Shown: positions 1,908 to 30,537, numbered from the stretch's first letter. The stretch: DNA of 37,379 nucleotides from an uncultured Pseudomonadales bacterium (GCA_964507605.1 CAZDQA010000003.1:1-37379); one strand, 5' to 3'. Notes: a model not told the origin generated them from the letters alone. Made by a program: numbers and translations.

Positions 1908-3309
1908 TCAATTAAATCTCCACCAAGCTTTAGACGGCTTAAAGAACCAGCTCTTTTCTTCAAAAGAGTTAGTGAAAGCCTGCTTAGACCAAATTCAAGC
2001 CAAAGATAAGTATCTTCATGCTTTTTTAACTTTAAATGAAGCTGCTTTTGAACAGGCTCAAGCTGCTGATCAGGATAAAGCCGATAAACCTTTAAAAGGC
2101 ATTCCTTATGCTTTGAAAGATAACTTTTTAACTGCCGGGATCCGAACGACCGCTTCTGCCAAACTTCTGGATCAGTTTATCCCGCCTTATGAGTCAACCG
2201 TCTCTGCCCGGTTAAAAGCCGCCGGAGCAATCTGCTTGGGTAAAACCAACATGGATGCCTGGGCGCACGGCTCCTCGACCGAAACTTCCGATTATGGCCC
2301 GACTCATAATCCCTGGAACTTAAATTACTTGCCCGGCGGTTCTTCCGGCGGTTCAGCCGCCGCCGTCAGCGCGGACATGTGCACTTTTGCTATTGGCTCG
2401 GAAACTGCCGGTTCAATTCGCCAGCCGTCAGCCTGGTGCGGTATTACCGGCTTTAAACCCAGTTACGGTCGGGTTTCCCGCTATGGTTTGATTGCCATGA
2501 CTTCCTCGACCGACTCGCCCGGACCGATTACCAAAAACGTTTACGATGCCGCTTTAATTACCCAAGTGATTGCCGGCCGCGACCCTTATGATGCCACAAC
2601 CTCGCCTTTAGCGGTAGATATTAATGCCGCCAGCCTGCAAGGAACATCCTTGAAGGGTAAAAAAATTGCCGTTCCTAAAGAATACCTAGCCAATATTTCT
2701 CCTCAGGTAAAACAGTTAATTGAAACAGCTATTCAACAGTTAATTAAACTGGGAGCGGAACTGAAACCAATCACTTTGCTCGACCCCCAATACTCAATCG
2801 GGGTCTACACCATTGTCCAGCGCGCCGAAGTTTCTTCCAATCTGGCCCGCTTTGACGGTGTCCGCTATGGCCAAGACCGCTCGGCTTTTTCCCATGAAGC
2901 CAAGAACCGCTGTTTACTGGGCACTTACGCTCTTTCTTCCCGTTATCATGGCGCTGGCGAGTACTATAACCAAGCGCAAAAGGTGCGGGCTTTGATTGTT
3001 AAAGATTTTGCCAAATTATTTAAATCTTTTGATCTTTATTTAGGTCCCACCTCGCCGGGCCCGGCTTTAAAATTAGGCGCCAGCCAGGATAATCCGATGT
3101 TTGGCGAAATAGAAGACAGGCTGGTCGAAGCGGCCGCTATTGCCGGCTTAACCGGTATCAGTATTCCCTGCGGTTTGGTTAATGGTTTGCCGATTGGTCT
3201 GCAGTTAACCGGTCCTCAATTTTCTGAACAAAAAGTTTTAATTGCCGCCCATGCTTATCAAAAAGCAACTGATCATCATTTACTCAAACCAAATTTAAAC
3301 TATGACTAA
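1897..3309 (+). CDS. gatA: Asp/Glu-tRNA amidotransferase subunit A (amidase family)
   Basis: Amidase signature GGSSGGSAAAV and KDNF...G..TTA.S. I place the start at the internal Met (MKLNQLN..., 1897), which overlaps the gatC stop by 11 nt. The upstream 16 codons of the tracked ORF (1849) lie inside gatC. Confidence 0.9.
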   Translation: MKLNQLNLHQALDGLKNQLFSSKELVKACLDQIQAKDKYLHAFLTLNEAAFEQAQAADQDKADKPLKGIPYALKDNFLTAGIRTTASAKLLDQFIPPYESTVSARLKAAGAICLGKTNMDAWAHGSSTETSDYGPTHNPWNLNYLPGGSSGGSAAAVSADMCTFAIGSETAGSIRQPSAWCGITGFKPSYGRVSRYGLIAMTSSTDSPGPITKNVYDAALITQVIAGRDPYDATTSPLAVDINAASLQGTSLKGKKIAVPKEYLANISPQVKQLIETAIQQLIKLGAELKPITLLDPQYSIGVYTIVQRAEVSSNLARFDGVRYGQDRSAFSHEAKNRCLLGTYALSSRYHGAGEYYNQAQKVRALIVKDFAKLFKSFDLYLGPTSPGPALKLGASQDNPMFGEIEDRLVEAAAIAGLTGISIPCGLVNGLPIGLQLTGPQFSEQKVLIAAHAYQKATDHHLLKPNLNYD

Positions 3310-4621
3310 GCTATATCCGACTATCGGTCTGGAAATTCATGTTGAATTAAAGACTAAATCCAAGATGTTTTGTGGTTGTCCGGCTGAACATTTCCAGGTT
3401 AAACCCAACACTCATACCTGCCCGGTTTGTTTAGGTTTGCCCGGGGCTCTGCCTGTACCTAATCAAAAGGCGGTTGATTGGACTATTCTGACCGGCTTGG
3501 CTTTAAACTGCCGCATTAATCAGGAATCTACCTTTGACCGCAAGCACTACTTCTATCCTGATCTCCCCAAAGGCTTTCAGATTTCCCAGTTTGACGATCC
3601 TTTTTGTCAGCAGGGCTTTATCCAACTGGACTCCGGCAAAAAGATTCTCATTAACCGGGTCCACCTGGAAGAAGACACAGCCAAACTGATTCATAAGAAG
3701 ATCAAGGACAAAGATGTCACCTTAGTGGACTTTAACCGTTCCGGCGTGGCTTTAATGGAAATCGTTACCGAGCCTGATGTCGCTTCCGGAAATGAAGCCA
3801 AAGAATTTTTAAAGAAATTAAGGGACATACTCCGCCGTCTCCAGGTTTCTGACTGTGACATGGAAAAAGGTTCGATGAGGTTGGAAGCCAACATTTCTTT
3901 AACTTCTGACCCAAAACACTTGGCTGATTACAAAATCGAAGTGAAAAACTTAAACTCTTTTCGCTTTGTTGATCAGGCCATTAACTTTGAAATTGAGCGC
4001 CAAACTGTCCTCTTAAAGCAGGGGATTACTCCGGTCCAGGAAACCCGAGGCTATGATGATCTGAAAAAGCAGACCTTTTCCCAACGGATTAAAGAGGCGG
4101 CTGGGGACTACCGCTATTTTCCCGAACCGGATATCCCGCCGATCGCCTTGACAAAAGAATATGTTGAAAATTTAAGAAAGCTTCTGCCAAAATTGCCGGA
4201 AGCAGAAATAAATGAGTTGATTCAGCATTTTCACTTGAACATTTCCACGGCTCAATTATTGGTAAAAGACGCGGTAAAACTGGCTTATTTTAATAAATAC
4301 GTAAATAAAATCGAGCCGCAGACTTTAGCCAATTTAATTATCAACAAAAAGATTGATCTTGATAAACCGCCGCGGCTGAAAACTACTACTCAAACGCTTA
4401 ATCCCAAAATAATTGCTCAGGTCTTAAAAGAAAATGCGGATGTTGTCGCTAAATACAAGGCCGGCAAAACCTCGGTCATCGGCTTTCTCGTCGGCCAGGT
4501 AATGAAGCAGACACACGGCAAAGTTGACCCCCGCCAAGCCAAAGATCTTTTGTTGCAAGCCGTCAAGGTCCTCAACCTGCGAGGTCGGACCTCGCAGGGC
4601 TATTCTTCAAAATCTAAGTGA
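3302..4621 (+). CDS. gatB: Asp/Glu-tRNA amidotransferase subunit B; last ~15 codons run through a REP palindrome
   Basis: N-terminus PTIGLEIHVELKTKSKMFCGC and a C-terminal GatB/YqeY-like VIGFLVGQVMKQTHGKVDP. It overlaps the gatA stop (ATGACTAA). The tail NLRGRTSQGYSSKSK is encoded by the palindrome at 4576-4598 plus the antisense of the RAYT1 3' end. Confidence 0.9.
   Translation: MTKLYPTIGLEIHVELKTKSKMFCGCPAEHFQVKPNTHTCPVCLGLPGALPVPNQKAVDWTILTGLALNCRINQESTFDRKHYFYPDLPKGFQISQFDDPFCQQGFIQLDSGKKILINRVHLEEDTAKLIHKKIKDKDVTLVDFNRSGVALMEIVTEPDVASGNEAKEFLKKLRDILRRLQVSDCDMEKGSMRLEANISLTSDPKHLADYKIEVKNLNSFRFVDQAINFEIERQTVLLKQGITPVQETRGYDDLKKQTFSQRIKEAAGDYRYFPEPDIPPIALTKEYVENLRKLLPKLPEAEINELIQHFHLNISTAQLLVKDAVKLAYFNKYVNKIEPQTLANLIINKKIDLDKPPRLKTTTQTLNPKIIAQVLKENADVVAKYKAGKTSVIGFLVGQVMKQTHGKVDPRQAKDLLLQAVKVLNLRGRTSQGYSSKSK
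4576..4598. repeat. REP-like 23-nt palindrome, type 1, copy a (stop-proximal flank of RAYT1)
   Basis: CCTGCGAGGTC-G-GACCTCGCAGG, perfect 11-bp arms around one central base. It ends 1 nt before the RAYT1 stop codon (4600-4602) and lies inside the gatB 3' end. Confidence 0.9.
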
Positions 4622-5250
4622 ATTTCTTTAATTCTTAAAATATCAGTTTCGTCAACTTCCTCAACAAATTGTCGGTAAGATAATTGCTGATTTGTTTTAG
4701 AAAACAAACTCAAAATTTCTTCTGATTTCACCCAGGATTGATCGAATAACCTCAGATAATTTTGATAACTTGAGTACTTATAGCCTGCGAGGTCCGACCT
4801 CGCAGGCAAAATTGCTAATGGGTTGCGGTGGATATACTTTGATAAGTAGGTAAATTGCTCTTCGCTGGTTACCGCCACTGCCTTTAATTTTCCTTGAAAG
4901 ATTGGACCAACTCTTTTATATTTTGTATTAAAATATCGGGAATACTTGGACATCAAAGATCTCATAAAACTAGTAATAGATGTTAGTTTATCTTGGTAAA
5001 GCAAGAAGTGAAAATGGTTCGGCATCAAACAGTAAGATAATAAAACTACATCAGCAAAAAAATTATTTAGTTGTTTAGAAGGAGAAATAGATTTATCTAC
5101 AACTATGGGAGTTAAATAAAATTTTAAATAACTCAGAAAGGTTTTGTAATCTTTTTCATCAAAAAAAATATTCTCTTTGGCAACGCCGCGATTATAAAGA
5201 TGATAATAGCTTTGTGGAGAATACTCTTTTACTACATTTTTGCTGGGCAT
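4600..5250 (-). CDS. REP-associated tyrosine transposase-like protein (HUH/Y1, IS200-like fold), paralog 1
   Basis: 216 aa. HUH motif in CLMPNHFHFLL and catalytic-Tyr motif YIHRNP, followed by YKYSSY. It is flanked on both sides by the same palindrome. Clear paralog of 22642-23301. Confidence 0.85.
   Translation of the reverse strand: MPSKNVVKEYSPQSYYHLYNRGVAKENIFFDEKDYKTFLSYLKFYLTPIVVDKSISPSKQLNNFFADVVLLSYCLMPNHFHFLLYQDKLTSITSFMRSLMSKYSRYFNTKYKRVGPIFQGKLKAVAVTSEEQFTYLSKYIHRNPLAILPARSDLAGYKYSSYQNYLRLFDQSWVKSEEILSLFSKTNQQLSYRQFVEEVDETDILRIKEIHLDFEE
4784..4806. repeat. REP-like palindrome, type 1, copy b (inside the RAYT1 coding sequence, in frame)
   Basis: CCTGCGAGGTC-C-GACCTCGCAGG. The central base is complementary to that of copies a and c, so the orientation is opposite. 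On the coding strand it reads cct gcg agg tcg gac ctc gca gg = PARSDLAG. Confidence 0.9.
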
Positions 5251-5257
5251 TAAATAT

Positions 5258-5263
5258 ATTATA
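5258..5263 (-). promoter_or_regulatory. Candidate -10 box (TATAAT) for RAYT1, 7 nt upstream of its ATG
   Basis: The minus strand reads ...CCTCACAGG-G-TATAAT-ATATTTA-ATG. The palindrome occupies the spacer/-35 region. No SD is present. Confidence 0.45.
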
Positions 5264-5264
5264 C

Positions 5265-5287
5265 CCTGTGAGGTCGGACCTCGCAGG
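5265..5287. repeat. REP-like palindrome, type 1, copy c (start-proximal flank of RAYT1), one mismatch
   Basis: CCTGTGAGGTC-G-GACCTCGCAGG. One transition (C>T at 5269) turns one stem pair into G.T. Confidence 0.9.
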
Positions 5288-5335: not shown

Positions 5336-8300
5336 ATGACTGAATTTGTTCATTTGCACGTTCATACCCAGTACTCTCTTCTTGACGGCTTATCTAAAAT
5401 CGATGAACTTCTGCTTAAAGCTAAAGCCCTGAAAATGAAGGCTATGGCCATCACTGATCATGGGGTAATGTACGCCGCGGTTAAGTTTCACAATGCCGCC
5501 AAAAAACTGGGGATTAAACCGATTATCGGCATGGAAGGCTATTTAACTACCCTTGACTGCCACGAAAAATCTCCCGGCTCGCAAAAACAAACCTACCATC
5601 AGGTCCTTTTGGCAAAAAACTTCATTGGCTACCAGAACTTAATGCGCTTAACCACCTATGCTAACTTGGAAGGTTATTACTATAAACCCCGTTTTGATTT
5701 TAAAGCCTTAGAAATGTATCACGAAGGTCTTATTCTCACTACTGCCTGTCTGCAGGGTTTGATCCCACAGATGATTCTGCAAAATAATGATCAGCAAGCC
5801 TTGGAATACTGCCGTTGGTTTCAAAAACTATTTAAAGACGATTTTTACCTGGAACTGCAGGTCCACCAGGGCCTGCCGGAACTGGAAAAAATTAATCAGA
5901 AATTAGTCGAGTTTTCCGGGAAATTAGGTATTCCCTTAGTGGCTACCAATGACCTGCATTATGTTAACAAAGACGATGCCAAAGCCCAGGATGCTTTGCT
6001 GGCGATTCAGACTAAAACTGTTCTGTCTGATAAAGACCGGCTGTCGATGATCGATTCACCGGACTATTACTTAAAATCCGCAGAAGAAATGACCCAACTT
6101 TTCCCTCAGCACCCGGAAGCGATTAAAAATACGGTTAAGATTGCTGACAAATGCAATGTCACCATCCCGACCGGCAAGTGGATCTTGCCTGCCTTTGCTC
6201 TGCCCAAAGGCTTTACTAATTCAGAAAAATATCTGCGGGATTTGTCCCAAAAAGGCTTGATTTACCGTTTTTCTAAAATTACTCCCGAACTCCAGAAACG
6301 CTTGGATTACGAGTTGAAAATTATCTGCTCCAAAGGTTTTGCCACTTATTTTTTAATTGTTCAGGACTTTGTCAACTGGGCAAAACAGCATCGCATTCGC
6401 GTTGGCCCAGGCCGGGGCAGTGTCGCCGGCTCGCTGGTAGCTTATGCTTTGCGTATTACTACCATTGACCCGATCGAGCATAATATTCCTTTTGAAAGAT
6501 TTATGAATGAAGAGCGGCCGTCGCCGCCGGACATTGATCTGGATTTTGCTGATGACCGCCGCGACGAGGTCATCGAATATGTGGCTAACAAATACGGGAA
6601 AGATAAAGTTGCCCAGATTATTACTTTCGGCACTATGGAAGCCAGGGGCGCTATCCGGGATATTGGCCGGGTTTTAGGTATGCCTTATTCTGAGCCGGAC
6701 AAAATTTCTAAACTGATCCCGGTTGGCTTTAGTCTTGAAGAAGCCCTGGTTAATGTACCGGAACTGCAAACCTACTACCACCAGCCTGAGTTTAAAGAAC
6801 TGATTAATTTAGCCAAAAAAGTTGAAGGCACTGCCCGTCATGCTTCGACTCATGCGGCAGGCGTGGTGATCGGCGATAAGCCTTTAACCGATTACACTCC
6901 CTTGCAGATTGAAAATAAAAACAACCGTATCATGACCCAATATGACATGTACTCGCTCGACTGCAACATTGATCAGGATGCTATCGGTTTATTGAAAATC
7001 GACTTGCTCGGTTTGAGAAATCTCACCATTCTGCAAAATGCCATTAACTTTGTCCAGGAGCAAAAACATTTGAAGGTGGACATGTCTGAACTGCCTTTAG
7101 ATGATCCTCTGGTTTATCAGCAGTTAAGCCAGGGCAATAACATCGGCGTTTTCCAACTGGAGTCCGGCGGTATGCGCAGTGTGGCCAAAAAACTTCAACC
7201 CTCCCGTTTTTCCGATATTACCGCTATGGTGGCTTTGTACCGGCCCGGCCCTATGGACCTGATTGATGACTTTATTGCCGGTAAAAAAAATCCCTCTTCA
7301 ATCAAGTATCCCCACCCGGACTTAAAACCGGTATTGGCAGAAACTTACGGAATTGCTGTTTACCAGGAACAGGCTCTGCAAATTGCCAACGTTATGGCTG
7401 GCTACAGCCTAGCTGAAGCCGATCTTCTCCGCCGGGCGATCGGTAAGAAAAAGCATGCACTCATGGCTAAAGAAAAATTCAAATTTATTCAGCAATCGCG
7501 GGCCAAAGGCTATACCAAAGAGATTGCCGAGCGGGTTTGGGGCTATATTGAAAAATTTGTCGGCTATGGCTTTAACAAAGCCCACGCCACTGCTTATGCC
7601 ATGATCGCTTACCAAACCGCCTACATGAAAGCTCATTATCCGGTGGAATTTATGGCCGCTTTATTGACCGCGGAAACCAGCAACAAAGATAAAGTTCCCT
7701 TGGCGGTGGCCGAAGCCAAAAGAATGAAAATTAAAGTTTGCCCCCCTGACATCAACCTTTCCTGCACCAACTTCACCATTATTAAAGATAAAACCTCCCT
7801 TAATCAGCAGGCGATTTTGTTTGGCTTATCGGCGATTAAAAATGTTGGTGAAGCGGCCATTGACGCGATTATCCAAGCCCGGAAAACTAATAAATTTTCT
7901 TCCTTAACTGATTTTTGCCAGCGGGTGGACAACCAAAAAGCTAATAAAAAAGTTCTGGAGAGCCTAATCCAAGTTGGCTGCTTCGATGCTTTTGCCAAAA
8001 GAAGCCAGCTGATGCTGTCAATGGAAAAGATCCGCCAAAACGCCGCCGAGACTCAAAAAAATAACAACAGTCCCCAAGTCTCCCTTTTCTCCGCTGAAGA
8101 GAACAAAAAAAACGAGGCCGTGGACAAGCTGACCGATACCGAAGAATTCAGCAAGCTGGACCTGTTAAACTTTGAAAAACAACTGCTGGGTTTTTATTTG
8201 ACTGAGCATCCTTTAGCCCAGTCAATGGATAAAATCAAACAGTTAACCTCTCATCAGATCGCTGAACTGGACCCGCAAACCCACAATAACCAGACGGTGA

Positions 8301-10827: not shown

Positions 10828-10900
10828 GGGCCGGTAGCTCAACGGTTAGAGCTTTTGCCTTTTAAGCAAAGTGTTCTGGGTTCGAATCCCAGCCGGCTCA
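10828..10900 (+). tRNA. tRNA-Lys(UUU)
   Basis: GGGCCGG-TA-GCTC-AACGGTTA-GAGC-T-TTTGC-CTTTTAA-GCAAA-GTGTT-CTGGG-TTCGAAT-CCCAG-CCGGCTC-A. Full cloverleaf with anticodon TTT. CCA is not encoded. Confidence 0.9.
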
Positions 10901-10912
10901 CGGGTTTTTTTT

Positions 10913-10984
10913 GGCCCCATAGTCTAGAGGTTAGGACATTGGGTTTTCATCCCAAAAACCAGGGTTCGATTCCCTGTGGGGTCA
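10913..10984 (+). tRNA. tRNA-Glu(UUC)
   Basis: GGCCCCA-TA-GTCT-AGAGGTTA-GGAC-A-TTGGG-TTTTCAT-CCCAA-AAAC-CAGGG-TTCGATT-CCCTG-TGGGGTC-A. Anticodon TTC. CCA is not encoded. Confidence 0.9.
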
Positions 10985-10989
10985 CAAAA

Positions 10990-11589
10990 ATGAAATTTTT
11001 AATACCAATCGGGTTTTTAATATTTATATCAGGTTTATACTTAGCTTTTCTCAAACACTCTGATATTTGGTATAGCGTTTTTCTAATAGGCGGTTTTTTA
11101 CTCCTTGAGGGAGTAAATTTCAAAAAAGGATCCTCTGTACTGAAAAACAGAAAATGGTTTTTGCTGACGTGGTTAATATTTATAGCCATAACGATTGTTG
11201 TTGAAATTATCGGTAATTATTGGTTGAACCTTTGGGATTATCCAACTTTTGATAAAGTTGATTACTTGATCCACGTGATTGTTATAGGTTATCCATTAAC
11301 TGGTTTCTTTGGTTTAGAATTTTTTATTTTACTGCAAAAAATTTTTACTTCGCGAAAAACCCAGATAATCATCCTGCCTATATCTGCTTTCCTTTTTGGT
11401 TATCTTAATGAATATCCGAATATTTTTGCCTACGAATGGAAATATATTAACTGGCCATTCGCTGAATTTCTGGGAATTCCGATTTTGGTATCGCTTTTAT
11501 GGATTCTGTTGTTGATTGTTATTTTCTTTAAGAAGCCTTTTGAATTCAGAAAAGTCAGCCTGCGAGGAGTCTCCTCGCAGGTAATCTAA
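10990..11589 (+). CDS. Hypothetical polytopic membrane protein (visibly AT-rich gene); C-terminus runs through a REP-variant palindrome
   Basis: The start is moved to the Met at 10990 (MKFLIPIGF...) because the tracked 5' extension (10855) is the tRNA-Lys/Glu sequence. About 6 hydrophobic segments. No family recognised. The tail SLRGVSSQVI is encoded by the palindrome at 11559-11581. Confidence 0.6.
   Translation: MKFLIPIGFLIFISGLYLAFLKHSDIWYSVFLIGGFLLLEGVNFKKGSSVLKNRKWFLLTWLIFIAITIVVEIIGNYWLNLWDYPTFDKVDYLIHVIVIGYPLTGFFGLEFFILLQKIFTSRKTQIIILPISAFLFGYLNEYPNIFAYEWKYINWPFAEFLGIPILVSLLWILLLIVIFFKKPFEFRKVSLRGVSSQVI
11559..11581. repeat. REP-like palindrome, variant type (compensatory inner stem), orphan copy
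   Basis: CCTGCGAGGAG-T-CTCCTCGCAGG, perfect 11-bp arms. The outer 9 bp are identical to type 1. The inner two pairs are swapped on both arms (TC/GA to AG/CT). Confidence 0.9.
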
Positions 11590-21586: not shown

Positions 21587-22645
21587 ATGGCAGATAATCT
21601 TGACCCCGCTAATTTATACCAATCAATTGTTGACCTGACCAAACAATGCCAGCATGCTTTCAAGCAGGCTAACCAAGTTAAAGTTGCTCCTCAACCTGTC
21701 AAGCAGTTAATTATCTCCGGCATGGGCGGCTCGATTCTGGCCGCTCAGGTAATTGAATCGCTTTACGGTCTTCAACTGAGCGTTCCCTTAACCAAAATCA
21801 GTGATTACCATTTGCCGGTTTGGGCCAATCAGGACAGTTTAGTGATTTGTTCCAGTTATTCCGGTACCACTGAAGAAACTGTTCAGACGCTCAAAGAAGC
21901 CCTGGCTAAAAACTGTCAAATTATTGTTATCTGCGGCGGGGGAGAGCTGGAAACTTTGGCTTTAAGCAACCACTTGCCTTTGTATAAAATTAACCCGGTT
22001 TATAATCCCTGCCGCCAGCCGCGCATGGCCATTGGTTACTCTCTAATTGGCCAGCTGGTCCTGGTCGCCAAAGCCGGTTTATTAAAGTTCGACCAACCTG
22101 ACATACAGTTAATTCAAACCGCCATGGCCCAAGTGGTCAAAGCTAACCACCGGGATATGCCTGTCGAAAACAACCCTGCCAAAAAACTGGCCCAGGAGTT
22201 TCATTCCCGGCAGGTGATTATGGTTGCCGCCGAGCACCTGGCCGGCGCCTTCCATGTTGTCAAAAACCAGATGAATGAGAACGCTAAGCAATTATCCCAC
22301 CGCCACGACCTGCCTGAACTTAACCACCACCTGCTCGAAGGTTTGCGCTTTCCTGAATCTAATCGAAAAGATGTAGCTTTCTGGGTAATTAACTCTAAGC
22401 TCTATTCTCCCAGGCTCCAAACCCGCGTCCGTCTAACCATTGATGTTATCCGGAAAAATAAAATTAAGGCTTTTGAATTTACCCCTTCCGCTGACACTAA
22501 ACTGGCCCAGGTTTTCGAGCTGATCCAATTTGGCAGCTTCGTCAACTACTATATGGCTATGCTCAACCATCTCAATCCTGCCCTGATCCCCTGGGTCAAC
22601 TACTTCAAAAAACACCTGCAGGATCCGACCCTGCAGGCAATCTAA
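21587..22645 (+). CDS. Bifunctional phosphoglucose/phosphomannose isomerase-type SIS domain protein; C-terminus runs through a type-2 palindrome
   Basis: 352 aa. SIS motif ISGMGGS and SYSGTTEET. Size and pattern fit the PGI/PMI family. The tail HLQDPTLQAI is encoded by 22615-22637. Confidence 0.75.
   Translation: MADNLDPANLYQSIVDLTKQCQHAFKQANQVKVAPQPVKQLIISGMGGSILAAQVIESLYGLQLSVPLTKISDYHLPVWANQDSLVICSSYSGTTEETVQTLKEALAKNCQIIVICGGGELETLALSNHLPLYKINPVYNPCRQPRMAIGYSLIGQLVLVAKAGLLKFDQPDIQLIQTAMAQVVKANHRDMPVENNPAKKLAQEFHSRQVIMVAAEHLAGAFHVVKNQMNENAKQLSHRHDLPELNHHLLEGLRFPESNRKDVAFWVINSKLYSPRLQTRVRLTIDVIRKNKIKAFEFTPSADTKLAQVFELIQFGSFVNYYMAMLNHLNPALIPWVNYFKKHLQDPTLQAI
22615..22637. repeat. REP-like 23-nt palindrome, type 2, copy a (stop-proximal flank of RAYT2)
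   Basis: CCTGCAGG-ATC-C-GAC-CCTGCAGG. An 8-bp outer stem, an inner A.C mismatch, then 2 more pairs. It ends 4 nt before the RAYT2 stop (22642-22644). Confidence 0.9.
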
Positions 22646-23301
22646 TCATCAATATCCAAGACTTGGCCTTTAATTCTCAAAATATCCGACTCATCAACTT
22701 CTTCGACAAACTCCTTATAAGATCTTGCCGGTTTTGTCCGGTTAAAATAACTCAAAATGTCCTCGGTTTCTACCCAAGGTTGATTAAACAACCCCAGGTA
22801 ATTCTGATAGCTCGAATACTTATACTCCTCCAAACCTGCAGGGTCGGATCCTGCAGGTAGGGGATTACGATGAATGTATTTAGATAAATATAAAAACTGT
22901 TCTTCTGATTCCACCTCAACCGCCTTGTATTTTCCCTGAAATACCGGCCCCACCCGTTTATATCTCTTATTAAAATACATCGAATATTTGGTCAGCAGTG
23001 ATTTTAAAAAAAGCGGAATGCCAAAAACATCTTTCTGAAACAACAATAAATGAAAATGGTTGGGCATTAAACAATAACAATGTAAAAAAGCTTGTTGGAA
23101 AAAATTCTTCAACTGCTTCGTTGGGGGCACCTGCAGGATCCGACCCTGCAGGTCCTTGGAAGCTAAATATAGCTTTAAATATCCAATAAAAACCTTATAA
23201 TCCTGCTTATCTAAAAAAATTTGCTGTTTAGCTACGCCGCGATTATAAATATGGTAAAACCCGTTTTCTTTATACTCGCGGACTGTATTTTTGCAGGGCA
23301 T
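22642..23301 (-). CDS. REP-associated tyrosine transposase-like protein (HUH/Y1), paralog 2
   Basis: HUH motif in CLMPNHFHLLL and YIHRNP followed by YKYSSY. Collinear with paralog 1 and roughly 55-65% identical by eye. The start is set at the Met at 23301 (MPCKNTVREY, matching MPSKNVVKEY of paralog 1). The tracked 21-codon extension to 23364 reads through the upstream palindrome. Confidence 0.85.
   Translation of the reverse strand: MPCKNTVREYKENGFYHIYNRGVAKQQIFLDKQDYKVFIGYLKLYLASKDLQGRILQVPPTKQLKNFFQQAFLHCYCLMPNHFHLLLFQKDVFGIPLFLKSLLTKYSMYFNKRYKRVGPVFQGKYKAVEVESEEQFLYLSKYIHRNPLPAGSDPAGLEEYKYSSYQNYLGLFNQPWVETEDILSYFNRTKPARSYKEFVEEVDESDILRIKGQVLDIDD
22835..22857. repeat. REP-like palindrome, type 2, copy b (in frame inside RAYT2, inverted relative to the flanks)
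   Basis: CCTGCAGGGTCGGATCCTGCAGG is the exact reverse complement of copy a. The coding strand reads cct gca gga tcc gac cct gca gg = PAGSDPAG. Confidence 0.9.
23130..23152. repeat. REP-like palindrome, type 2, copy c (second in-frame copy inside RAYT2)
   Basis: Identical to copy a (CCTGCAGGATCCGACCCTGCAGG). The coding strand reads ctg cag ggt cgg atc ctg cag g = LQGRILQ(V). Confidence 0.9.
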
Positions 23302-23313
23302 AACCATTCTCAT

Positions 23314-23336
23314 CCTACAGGATCCGACCCTGCAGG
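23314..23336. repeat. REP-like palindrome, type 2, copy d (start-proximal flank of RAYT2), one mismatch
   Basis: CCTACAGGATCCGACCCTGCAGG. One transition (G>A at 23317) in the outer stem. It lies 12 nt upstream of the RAYT2 ATG. Confidence 0.9.
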
Positions 23337-28545: not shown

Positions 28546-30537
28546 ATGGATTTAACCAGTCTATTTTCGCCCCGATCCATTGCCTTAATCGGCGCCTCTG
28601 CCAACCAAAAAAAAATCGGCTTCCAAATTCTAGCCAAACTTCTTCAAACCAAATTGCCGGTTTTCCCCATCAACCCCCATGAATCTAAAATTTTAAACAC
28701 CCAGGCTTATCCTTCTATTCATGACGTGCCTGGTCCTGTTGATTTGGCAATTGTGGCCGTACCCGCCCCGATCGTCAACTTAGTTGTTCAGCAAGCCGGT
28801 GAAAAAAAAGTTAAATCTGTCGTGGTTATTTCCGCTGGTTTTTCTGAATCCGGCCCTGAAGGAAAAAAGCTGGAAGATAATTTAAAAAAAATCTGTCAAA
28901 CATACCAACTTAATCTTCTTGGTCCCAATGTTTTGGGTTTTGCCAATCCGAAAAAGAAATTAGACATTACTTTTGCCAAAACCGCCCCTCCAGCCGGCAA
29001 TATTGGTTTAATCTCTCAGTCAGGGGCCATCGGTTCATATCTTTTTGACTGGGCTAAGTCCGAGAGCCTCGGGTTCTCTAAATTTGTTTCTTTAGGCAAC
29101 CGCGCCGGCTTAACGGAAACTGACTTCTTAACTTATCTGGCCGCTGATCCCAATACCAAAGTTATCGGCTTGTACTTAGAATCATTTGCTGATGGTCAAA
29201 AGTTTTTGTCAGTTGCCAGTCAACTGGCTCGAAAAAAACCAGTGGTGGCGATTTTCGGCGGCCAAACCCAAGCCGGTAAGCAAGCCGCCTTCAGCCATAC
29301 GGCAGCCTTAAGTCCCCAAACAGCAGTGATTGAAACCGCTTTAAATCAGGCGGGCTGCATCCAGGCGCCTGACTTAGAAGCCTTTAGTGACCTGCTCGAG
29401 ATTTTTTCTTTAGAACCGCCCCTGACCGATAATGACTTGGTGATCGTTACCAATGCCGGCGGTCCGGGAATTTTAGCCGCTGACAAGGCCGACGAGGTCC
29501 GCTTAAAAGTGGAGCGGCCGACTGATGTTCGGGGCGACGCTTTGGCAGAGCAGTTCAACACGGCTTTCCAACAAGTGATTAAAGATAAGATTAAAGACGC
29601 TTTTTTAATTATTCTTACTCCACAAACTATGACTCAGCTGGAACTAACCTGTCAGGCAGTAGTGAAACAATTTAAACACATTAAAAAACCAATAGTCGTT
29701 TCTTTGTTAGGCGGAGAAATCACCGCTAAGGCTAAGGAGATTTTAAGAAAAAACCACATTGCTACTATCGACTTTCCCCAAAAGGCCGTTAACTACTTAA
29801 GCATTCTTTTCCAATATTGGCATAATCGTCTAAAGCAAACTACTTATCCGATAAGACAAAGCTCACTTATTAAAGCTTCCCCCCTCAACCTTCAACCAGG
29901 CCGGCAAACTTGGCAGCAAATTAAAACCTTAGCTAAAACTTATCATTTGCCTTTAGTCACCACTAAAATTGTTAAAGAAAATACCCTACTTCAATTAATT
30001 AAAGAGATTGGTTTCCCCTTAGTTTTAAAAGCTGATCCAACCGAAGCTTTGCATCGAACTGAAAAGAAAGCCTTGTTCCTTAATTTGAATTCTATTCAGG
30101 CCGTTAAAAAACACTTTAATCAATTAAAGTCACAGTTTAAAACCATTCTGATTCAGCCGCAAATCCTGGCAGGACACGAACTGTTTCTGGGTTTAAAACG
30201 CCATCCCGGCTTCCCCCCTTTATTAACCATTGGTTCCGGCGGGATTTACACAGAAATTTATCAGGATGTCGCCCATACTTTTTTACCTGTCAATAAAACC
30301 TCCGTCTTAAAACTATTAGCGCAAACCAAGCTCGGCCAGATCCTGCTGGGCACCCGGGGACTGGCGCCTACTAACGTCCGCCAGGTTATTGATTTAATTT
30401 TGAATGTTTCTCAATTAGCTCTGAACTTTCCCCAAATCGATGAAATTAACATTAACCCGGCCATTATTAATCAATCCAAAATAGACATTGTCGACATCAA
30501 AATCACAGCCTGCGAGGTCCGACCTCGCAGGCCCTAA
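28546..30537 (+). CDS. Acetate--CoA ligase (ADP-forming), fused alpha/beta type; last 9 codons run through a type-1 palindrome
   Basis: 663 aa. An N-terminal CoA-binding/succinyl-CoA-ligase-like part (SIALIGAS, GPN.LG, ISQSGA) and a C-terminal ATP-grasp part. The tail ACEVRPRRP is encoded by 30509-30531. Confidence 0.8.
   Translation: MDLTSLFSPRSIALIGASANQKKIGFQILAKLLQTKLPVFPINPHESKILNTQAYPSIHDVPGPVDLAIVAVPAPIVNLVVQQAGEKKVKSVVVISAGFSESGPEGKKLEDNLKKICQTYQLNLLGPNVLGFANPKKKLDITFAKTAPPAGNIGLISQSGAIGSYLFDWAKSESLGFSKFVSLGNRAGLTETDFLTYLAADPNTKVIGLYLESFADGQKFLSVASQLARKKPVVAIFGGQTQAGKQAAFSHTAALSPQTAVIETALNQAGCIQAPDLEAFSDLLEIFSLEPPLTDNDLVIVTNAGGPGILAADKADEVRLKVERPTDVRGDALAEQFNTAFQQVIKDKIKDAFLIILTPQTMTQLELTCQAVVKQFKHIKKPIVVSLLGGEITAKAKEILRKNHIATIDFPQKAVNYLSILFQYWHNRLKQTTYPIRQSSLIKASPLNLQPGRQTWQQIKTLAKTYHLPLVTTKIVKENTLLQLIKEIGFPLVLKADPTEALHRTEKKALFLNLNSIQAVKKHFNQLKSQFKTILIQPQILAGHELFLGLKRHPGFPPLLTIGSGGIYTEIYQDVAHTFLPVNKTSVLKLLAQTKLGQILLGTRGLAPTNVRQVIDLILNVSQLALNFPQIDEININPAIINQSKIDIVDIKITACEVRPRRP
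30509..30531. repeat. REP-like palindrome, type 1, copy d (at the ACD / rsmI convergent junction)
   Basis: CCTGCGAGGTC-C-GACCTCGCAGG, perfect and identical to copy b. It lies about 25 kb from RAYT1. Confidence 0.9.

Follow-up and report, generated by a model that had tools for sequence, protein, structure and literature searches.

Each of the two RAYT-like genes in the window, the whole 37,379-nucleotide stretch of DNA analysed here, from a genome of the Beckwithbacteria type, carries inside its reading frame the same palindrome by which it is flanked. The internal copies are in-frame insertions of a DNA palindrome in two linkers tolerating several peptides; they were acquired a few times and often lost, and copies are nearly identical within a cassette and different between cassettes, including those of paralogues in the same genome. 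To our knowledge, and within the literature searched, cognate REPs at conserved sites within a RAYT reading frame have not been described. With a probability of roughly 60% the internal copies are considered to be tolerated cognate hairpins in two permissive linkers, kept uniform by homogenisation. The underlying unit would be a cassette of ~0.75 kb, composed of a Y1 (HUH) RAYT-like gene and up to four copies of one GC-rich palindrome of 21-31 nt, whose slots appear to be fixed: U beside a -10-like box, A in a loop, B in a linker and D at or overlapping the stop codon.

Genes and palindromes of the window

The features on which the analysis is based are the following, with coordinates counted from the first letter of the window.

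4560-4571, no strand assigned: half-palindrome relic CCGTCAAGGTCC of another REP type, which L082 carries at the same junction
4576-4598, no strand assigned: downstream flank copy, type 1, falling within the final codons of gatB (3302-4621) and resembling a terminator on the plus strand
4600-5250, minus strand: RAYT-like Y1 (HUH) transposase gene 1, 216 aa, from translation and Pfam PF01797 (E 1.3e-8)
4784-4806, minus strand: site B of gene 1, in-frame type-1 palindrome translated PARSDLAG, directly after YIHRNPL
5258-5263, minus strand: TATAAT, a -10-like hexamer 7 nt ahead of the gene 1 ATG, from a comparative pattern
5265-5287, no strand assigned: upstream flank copy, type 1, one stem mismatch; ends 1 nt before the TATAAT hexamer
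22615-22637, no strand assigned: downstream flank copy, type 2, in the last codons of a PGI-like gene (21587-22645); terminator-like on the minus strand
22642-23301, minus strand: RAYT-like gene 2, 219 aa; the ORF extends to 23364 through the upstream palindrome
22835-22857, minus strand: site B of gene 2, in-frame type-2 palindrome translated PAGSDPAG, directly after YIHRNPL
23130-23152, minus strand: site A of gene 2, where a further type-2 palindrome is read in frame as (D)LQGRILQ(V)
23314-23336, no strand assigned: upstream flank copy, type 2, one mismatch; weak hairpin (dG -3.7)
30509-30531, no strand assigned: solo copy of type 1, within the final codons of an ACS-like gene (28546-30537)

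Both proteins match the Pfam family Y1_Tnp (PF01797; E 1.3e-8 and 7.3e-7), are 60% identical to one another and contain H79-x-H81 and Y139 (HUH motif and catalytic tyrosine), which are invariant across 122 homologues. The start of gene 2 at 23301 was set by homology, all homologues beginning with MPxKN. A PDB sequence search with the window protein gave no match and a fold search was needed: the AlphaFold2 model of the gene 1 product (pLDDT 88.6, pTM 0.87) retrieved E. coli RAYT bound to REP (4er8_A) as its top PDB match in Foldseek (E 1.8e-5), followed by the ISDra2 and IS608 transposases. With 37.3 and 35.2 bits both proteins score below the 80-bit cut-off of the NCBIfam RAYT equivalog model NF047646 and are hence members of a distinct subfamily.

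A pattern search of the window for the 23-nt palindrome returned 8 copies against 0.00 expected from shuffles. Type 1 (CCTGCGAGGTC[G/C]GACCTCGCAGG; copies at 4576, 4784, 5265 with one mismatch, and 30509) and type 2 (CCTGCAGGATCCGACCCTGCAGG; copies at 22615, 22835, 23130, and 23314 with one mismatch) are distinguished by two compensatory stem pairs and one G-C to G.T change. As expected from the original prediction, both genes translate their own palindrome in frame after the YIHRNP tyrosine motif, and coordinates, peptides and frame were confirmed; around site B the gene 1 product reads ...YIHRNPLAILPARSDLAGYKYSSY... and the gene 2 product ...YIHRNPLPAGSDPAGLEEYKYSSY.... Equally sound was the statement that the internal copy matches the flanks of its own cassette and not those of the other, which holds for both types, each in-gene copy in the window being of the type of its own cassette. 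Gene 1 has a single in-gene copy; in gene 2 the second in-frame copy, that at site A, had been overlooked, and its frame differs from that of site B, with the orientation of the flanks. The alleged inversion of site B relative to the flanks is present in the window and is not a rule, as L081, an 86%-identical orthologue, differs and the orientation of B versus the flank is mixed across loci. The type-1 palindrome is a perfect 11+1+11 structure, so that 'orientation' rests on the central base only (G or C), and on two bases in type 2.

Strong DNA hairpins are formed by all window copies except the mismatched upstream type-2 copy. In both cassettes the most stable hairpins are the internal copies; in cassette 1 it is the site-B copy, with a dG of -14.6 kcal/mol and a z of -8.3 as single-stranded DNA. 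A scan of the window against Rfam found two tRNAs only and no family at the palindromes. Flank copies are not strictly extragenic, since the downstream ones lie inside the last codons of the GatB and PGI-like genes. The C-terminal tails of the GatB, PGI-like and ACS-like proteins (4576-4621, 22615-22645 and 30509-30537) are palindrome-encoded, because the ORFs run through the repeat before their stop. At 5747-5776 dnaE contains a partial palindrome whose complementarity to the type-2 copy at 22610-22639 amounts to only 77%; this coding sequence aligns with dnaE of L081 and L082, and the palindrome was treated as chance.

Hairpin slots in the gene family

The protein has 3380 database relatives, assigned to Beckwithbacteria or Patescibacteria wherever named, and an exhaustive search yielded 209 clusters at E<=1e-30 and 6859 at E<=1e-10. 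For the survey 160 loci (GTDB genomes and JGI metagenomes) and the two window cassettes were combined to a set of 162, and hairpins were scanned without prior assumptions (at least 8 stem matches, at most one mismatch, loop of 3-8). In these 162 genes GC-rich hairpins cluster at four slots: U lies 5' of the start codon, with hairpin midpoints at -20 to -50; A in a loop near residue 50 (reference residues 51-53; 60/162 genes); B in the linker after NP (reference residues 149-153; 67/162 genes); and D 0-30 nt past the stop codon or overlapping it. The remaining in-gene hairpins are scattered, AT-rich and non-cognate.

Cognate copies, defined by at most 5/21 mismatches, were sought with the flank hairpin as probe in the 137 cassettes having one, and 96 of them contain at least one, with site B occupied in 77, site A in 61 and both sites in 42, compared to 0/546 in size-matched control windows of the same genes; 30% of the cassettes with flank hairpins have neither internal copy. 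The site-B copy differs from its own flank or site-A copies by a median of 0-1 positions in 21 nt and from those of other cassettes by 8-9, and the internal copies match the uniformity seen from flank to flank (0.56-0.97 differences). In four-copy cassettes site B is the least frequent outlier, and in the MAG JBDRQW01 each paralogue (L003, L007, L016, L018) possesses a palindrome of its own. The co-variation of internal and flanking palindromes, proposed from the two genes of the window, extends to ~100 independent cassettes.

Among the best 120 of the 3380 relatives the segment following NP reads P-x-(R/G)-x-x-L-x-G, and its residues 2 and 7 pair like bases (A/A in 25, T/V in 27, S/E+D in 28), with T/E as a recurrent one-mismatch class (23). 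Over 59 distinct site-B hairpins compensatory changes are present at 9/10 stem pairs, with a covariation score of 0.62 versus 0.20 in shuffles (0/500) and <=0.16 with slid partners, where the stem threshold used in hairpin detection inflates pairing percentages by ascertainment and leaves the diversity of pair types unaffected. Site B is read in three frames, e.g. PxRxDLxG, ACKDxPCRL and ASQGxxLR, found in 35, 16 and 14 genes, respectively, and the frame is clade-specific on a protein tree that was built without sites A and B, from which it follows that internal copies were acquired a few times. According to Fitch parsimony on 162 genes, ~29 state changes are required per site, mostly losses. 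Both sites are retained long-term, down to 40% protein identity, and lost or decayed copies with the gene intact are met with in, e.g., L013, L024 and L004.

The most distant members (L137, L141, L144, L146, L149 and L152) possess a 5-residue linker, NP-xxYxx-WPYS, and have no palindrome at A or B with the hairpins at U and D kept, and L128 shows a clean 21-nt insert at the linker. On these grounds the internal copies are insertions, not a recoded native (R/K)AG motif, and the eight residues, for which an insertion and a recoded segment had both been considered beforehand, are an insertion relative to the short-linker relatives. Together with the three clade-specific frames this demonstrates that the DNA palindrome is conserved and not a peptide motif. 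COG1943 proteins generally have a short conserved stretch after NP, e.g. NPV(R/K)AGLV, and E. coli RayT reads NPVKHGWV at this point. The suggestion that the GCAGG arm encodes the 'AG' of such a motif had to be abandoned, as the residues co-vary as base pairs, occur in three frames and are missing along with the palindrome from the distant members. Directly after the site-B palindrome one to three tandem LEG triplets (up to LEGLEGLEG) were observed in the homologues P0017, P0051, P0077 and P0093, which suggests 9-nt slippage beside the hairpin arm.

In 30 cassettes the site-A copy is unlike its flank, and 7/30 differ exactly at the base that would otherwise create an in-frame TAG or TAA. In L033 and L085 this stop-avoiding change is compensated at the partner base and the stem stays perfect; in 5/7 it is uncompensated. 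In the AlphaFold2 model neither site A nor site B belongs to a regular secondary structure; both are linkers whose pLDDT is locally lower, and site B marks the boundary of the Pfam Y1_Tnp match (ending at aa 142), between the catalytic Y1 and the C-terminal domains.

Exchange of cassettes at conserved junctions

The position between gatB and dnaE is occupied by a RAYT gene also in L081, L082, L084 and L002, and in L016 and L083, whose loci cover the dnaE side only, the RAYT gene adjoins dnaE; the arrangement of PGI-like gene, RAYT and PPDK is shared by about a dozen genomes. At these conserved junctions the palindrome varies by genome and RAYT identity saturates near 53-60%. The dnaE genes of L081 and L082 are both ~93% identical to that of the window, and their RAYT proteins are 86% identical with the same palindrome (L081) and 64% identical with a different palindrome (L082). 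RAYT identity is thus decoupled from that of dnaE, and close relatives hold alternative cassettes at one and the same junction. In a three-way alignment the DNA of W1, the first cassette of the window, and of L082 is ~88% identical in both flanks and ~62% inside, with breaks exactly at the outer palindromes, and that of W1 and L081 is more similar within the cassette than outside. The whole cassette, bounded by its outer palindromes, is exchanged as a unit at both junctions; similarity breaks at these palindromes, yet the cassette stays at the same junction. The half-palindrome relic at 4560-4571 adjoins the downstream type-1 copy and matches the 3' half of the site-B copy of L082 at 12/12 positions; from this relic it is deduced that the type-1 cassette replaced one of the L082 type, with the break inside the loop of the old palindrome.

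Mosaic alleles are present (W1/P0002, L082/P0011), P0002 being of the W1 type except for residues 167-193, where its sequence is of the L082 type. A shuffling of modules at the internal hairpins was considered and rejected: by maximum chi-square 19/1332 pairs were significant, with breakpoints at residues 80-195 and none clustered at A or B.

Outside the cassettes cognate copies are rare, with 17 in 732 kb of flanking DNA (0.23 per 10 kb, from which genome-wide numbers are extrapolated), and they are ~200 times denser in the cassette than in these flanks. Seven of the 17 lie deep in long ORFs and six in the last codons of an ORF. Solo copies in the window comprise one of type 1 and none of type 2. 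In L020 a RAYT cassette is convergent with a homologue of the ACS-like gene, and the solo type-1 copy at 30509-30531 may be the mark of a lost cassette or a landing site.

Explanations of the internal copies and known systems

It is implausible that four copies acquired the same compensatory changes independently, and a continuing exchange among the copies of a cassette would be needed. Homogenisation within the cassette, one of the possibilities raised at the outset, has gained ground, in that genes sharing an insertion frame by descent carry very different palindromes, each uniform inside its cassette; an ongoing process of this kind would uphold the uniformity of the copies. It might proceed by hairpin-guided cleavage and strand transfer on single-stranded DNA by the encoded enzyme, a putative activity here and one known from RAYT and IS200/IS605 enzymes, which would respect exact element boundaries and therefore the reading frame too, or else by short-patch gene conversion. 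Against our reading it has to be held that 23 bp are short for RecA-type conversion. Selection for an open reading frame would filter the homogenised copies, and most likely the internal ones would be tolerated substrates or by-products of an enzyme acting mainly on its own locus, a protein-level adaptation being improbable. These data fit conversion and enzyme-mediated replacement as well as a selection that acts directly on every copy.

Expression signals near the genes bear on the part that the palindromes might play. In 51/159 family genes the start codon is preceded, at a distance of 6-7 nt, by the end of a TA[TC][AG][ACG]T hexamer, a Shine-Dalgarno-like motif was found in only 8/159, and the upstream palindrome often stops 1-2 nt before the -10-like hexamer. 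The mRNA is thus probably leaderless, with the palindrome in the promoter spacer; the site beside the upstream palindrome, which has a -10 hexamer only, was not called by a scan for promoters with two hexamers, and the promoter is proposed from the comparative pattern. A RAYT gene tends to lie antisense to its two neighbours (54 vs 21), and stem mismatches are mostly transitions, with more A.C (71) than G.T (42) on the sense strand at all four slots. Excess of A.C and antisense bias would fit a use of the hairpin on the antisense strand as single-stranded DNA, although a mutation bias is possible.

Some results point against mere tolerance, namely the compensation in L033 and L085, the superior stability of the internal hairpins and the position of site B as least frequent outlier. 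They lend some weight to a second and clearly less probable explanation, in which the internal hairpins would be selected functional cis-elements, either for autoregulation of expression or activity, or as ORF-protected master templates for flanks and specificity. In the former case the gene itself, single-stranded or extruded as a cruciform, would be recognised by its enzyme, and the internal and promoter-proximal copies together would throttle expression or activity; the U copy abutting the -10-like box of a probably leaderless gene is in accordance with this, as are the lasting occupation of both sites, even where protein identity has fallen to 40%, and an internal uniformity equal to that of the flanks. 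However, copies are frequently lost or decayed in intact genes (29 Fitch changes per site), nearly a third of the cassettes with flank hairpins (30%) do without either internal copy, most stop-avoiding changes (5/7) remain uncompensated, orientation is not fixed, and the same palindromes are found in frame in unrelated genes. That a transposase-like gene stores its own DNA substrate in its reading frame for a purpose, be it self-sensing or self-limiting, or the keeping of master copies that match specificity to the flanks, is therefore a tentative idea; if true, it would provide a built-in route to the co-evolution of a DNA-binding enzyme and its target.

A role as sense-mRNA structures, in stability, ribosome pausing or processing, is very unlikely: the hairpins are stable and the downstream copies terminator-like, but the sense strand shows no G.U-compatible excess (G.T 42 vs A.C 71), both orientations are present, the element lies on either strand at gene ends, and no Rfam family was matched. 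An origin of the palindrome family from this coding segment, as had been envisaged, or an ordinary conserved motif that is palindromic by chance, can appeal to the conserved stretch after NP in COG1943 proteins and is scarcely conceivable in view of three frames and both orientations at one site, peptide positions co-varying as base pairs, short-linker members with flank hairpins and without an internal one, a second internal site, a chance expectation of 0, and the insertion in GatA described below.

In REPtrons RAYT or TnpA_REP genes are flanked by cognate REPs, with repeats specific to each paralogue (PMC2817692, PMC3733652, PMC8266576), and on single-stranded DNA RAYTs carry out cleavage and strand transfer guided by hairpins (PMC8266576); intragenic REPs, in frame in protein genes, are known as well (PMC3733652). 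The window family resembles REPtrons in the Y1 HUH fold, in cognate palindromes flanking the gene, in different repeats for different paralogues and in a stable chromosomal position, unlike insertion sequences, and it departs from them by cognate copies in the ORF, in frame and at two conserved sites, which the RAYT papers searched do not describe. Its repeats in the window are perfect palindromes (CCTGC...GCAGG) without a 5' GTAG tag, some relatives having CCTAC...GTAGG inside a perfect stem, and their copy number outside the cassette appears to be low in the flanking DNA searched, whereas classical REPs reach >100 copies per genome. Further differences lie in the scores below the NCBIfam RAYT cut-off and in the swapping of whole cassettes at conserved junctions. 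Failing the curated model, and with repeats lacking a GTAG tag and apparently also a high copy number, the window family is to be regarded as a variant of RAYT/REPtron and not as a canonical member.

With IS200/IS605 elements the cassette shares the hairpin-gene-hairpin unit bounded by hairpins, the Y1 HUH enzyme and an orientation bias relative to its neighbours. In contrast to them, near-identical whole-element copies per genome are absent here (the window pair is 60% identical and the palindromes of JBDRQW01 differ), the same perfect palindrome stands at both cassette ends instead of distinct left and right ends, and cassette positions are conserved across genomes; a target or guide tetranucleotide in the manner of IS200/IS605 was not identified in the cassettes. 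Rickettsia palindromic elements (RPE), which Ogata reportedly described in 2000, are said to be inserted in frame in protein genes. As in RPE and intragenic REPs, an in-frame translated palindrome occupies a permissive site and is absent from shorter homologues, which applies to GatA of the window alike; here, however, the host is the element's own putative transposase and not an unrelated gene, the sites are conserved family-wide, and the inserted copy is matched to the flanks of the gene. A description of REPs inside a RAYT ORF was not found in the literature searched, which included Nunvar 2010, Quentin 2018, Bertels 2017, Di Nocera 2013, Corneloup 2021 and one 2026 preprint, subscription journals being sparsely covered.

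The family bears on the questions of how the match between RAYT enzymes and their palindromes is maintained and which role RAYTs have in the cell. It offers ~100 natural replicates of one enzyme with up to four presumed substrate copies within 0.8 kb and paralogue-specific hairpins, and hence a ready specificity table for binding and cleavage experiments. In gene-dense Patescibacteria palindromes are routinely written into proteins (RAYT and GatA, and the C-termini of GatB, PGI-like and ACS-like proteins), and annotation pipelines and family alignments should expect octapeptide inserts that co-vary as base pairs.

Other elements were also observed in the window. Read in frame as LQGTSLK, a REP-like palindrome (cctgcaaggaACAtccttgaagg, one stem mismatch) of yet another type lies in gatA at 2634-2656, and at this palindrome GatA has 6-7 residues more than GatA of L084 and L002. 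A solo perfect palindrome of a third type (cctgcgaggaGTCtcctcgcagg) lies between convergent ORFs at 11559-11581; it has no cognate RAYT in the window, and similar types flank RAYTs in L024, L092 and L013. Two tRNA genes (10828-10900 and 10913-10984) overlap the 5' part of an ORF at 10855-11589 (TTG start, no Pfam match), which because of this overlap is probably spurious, at least partly.
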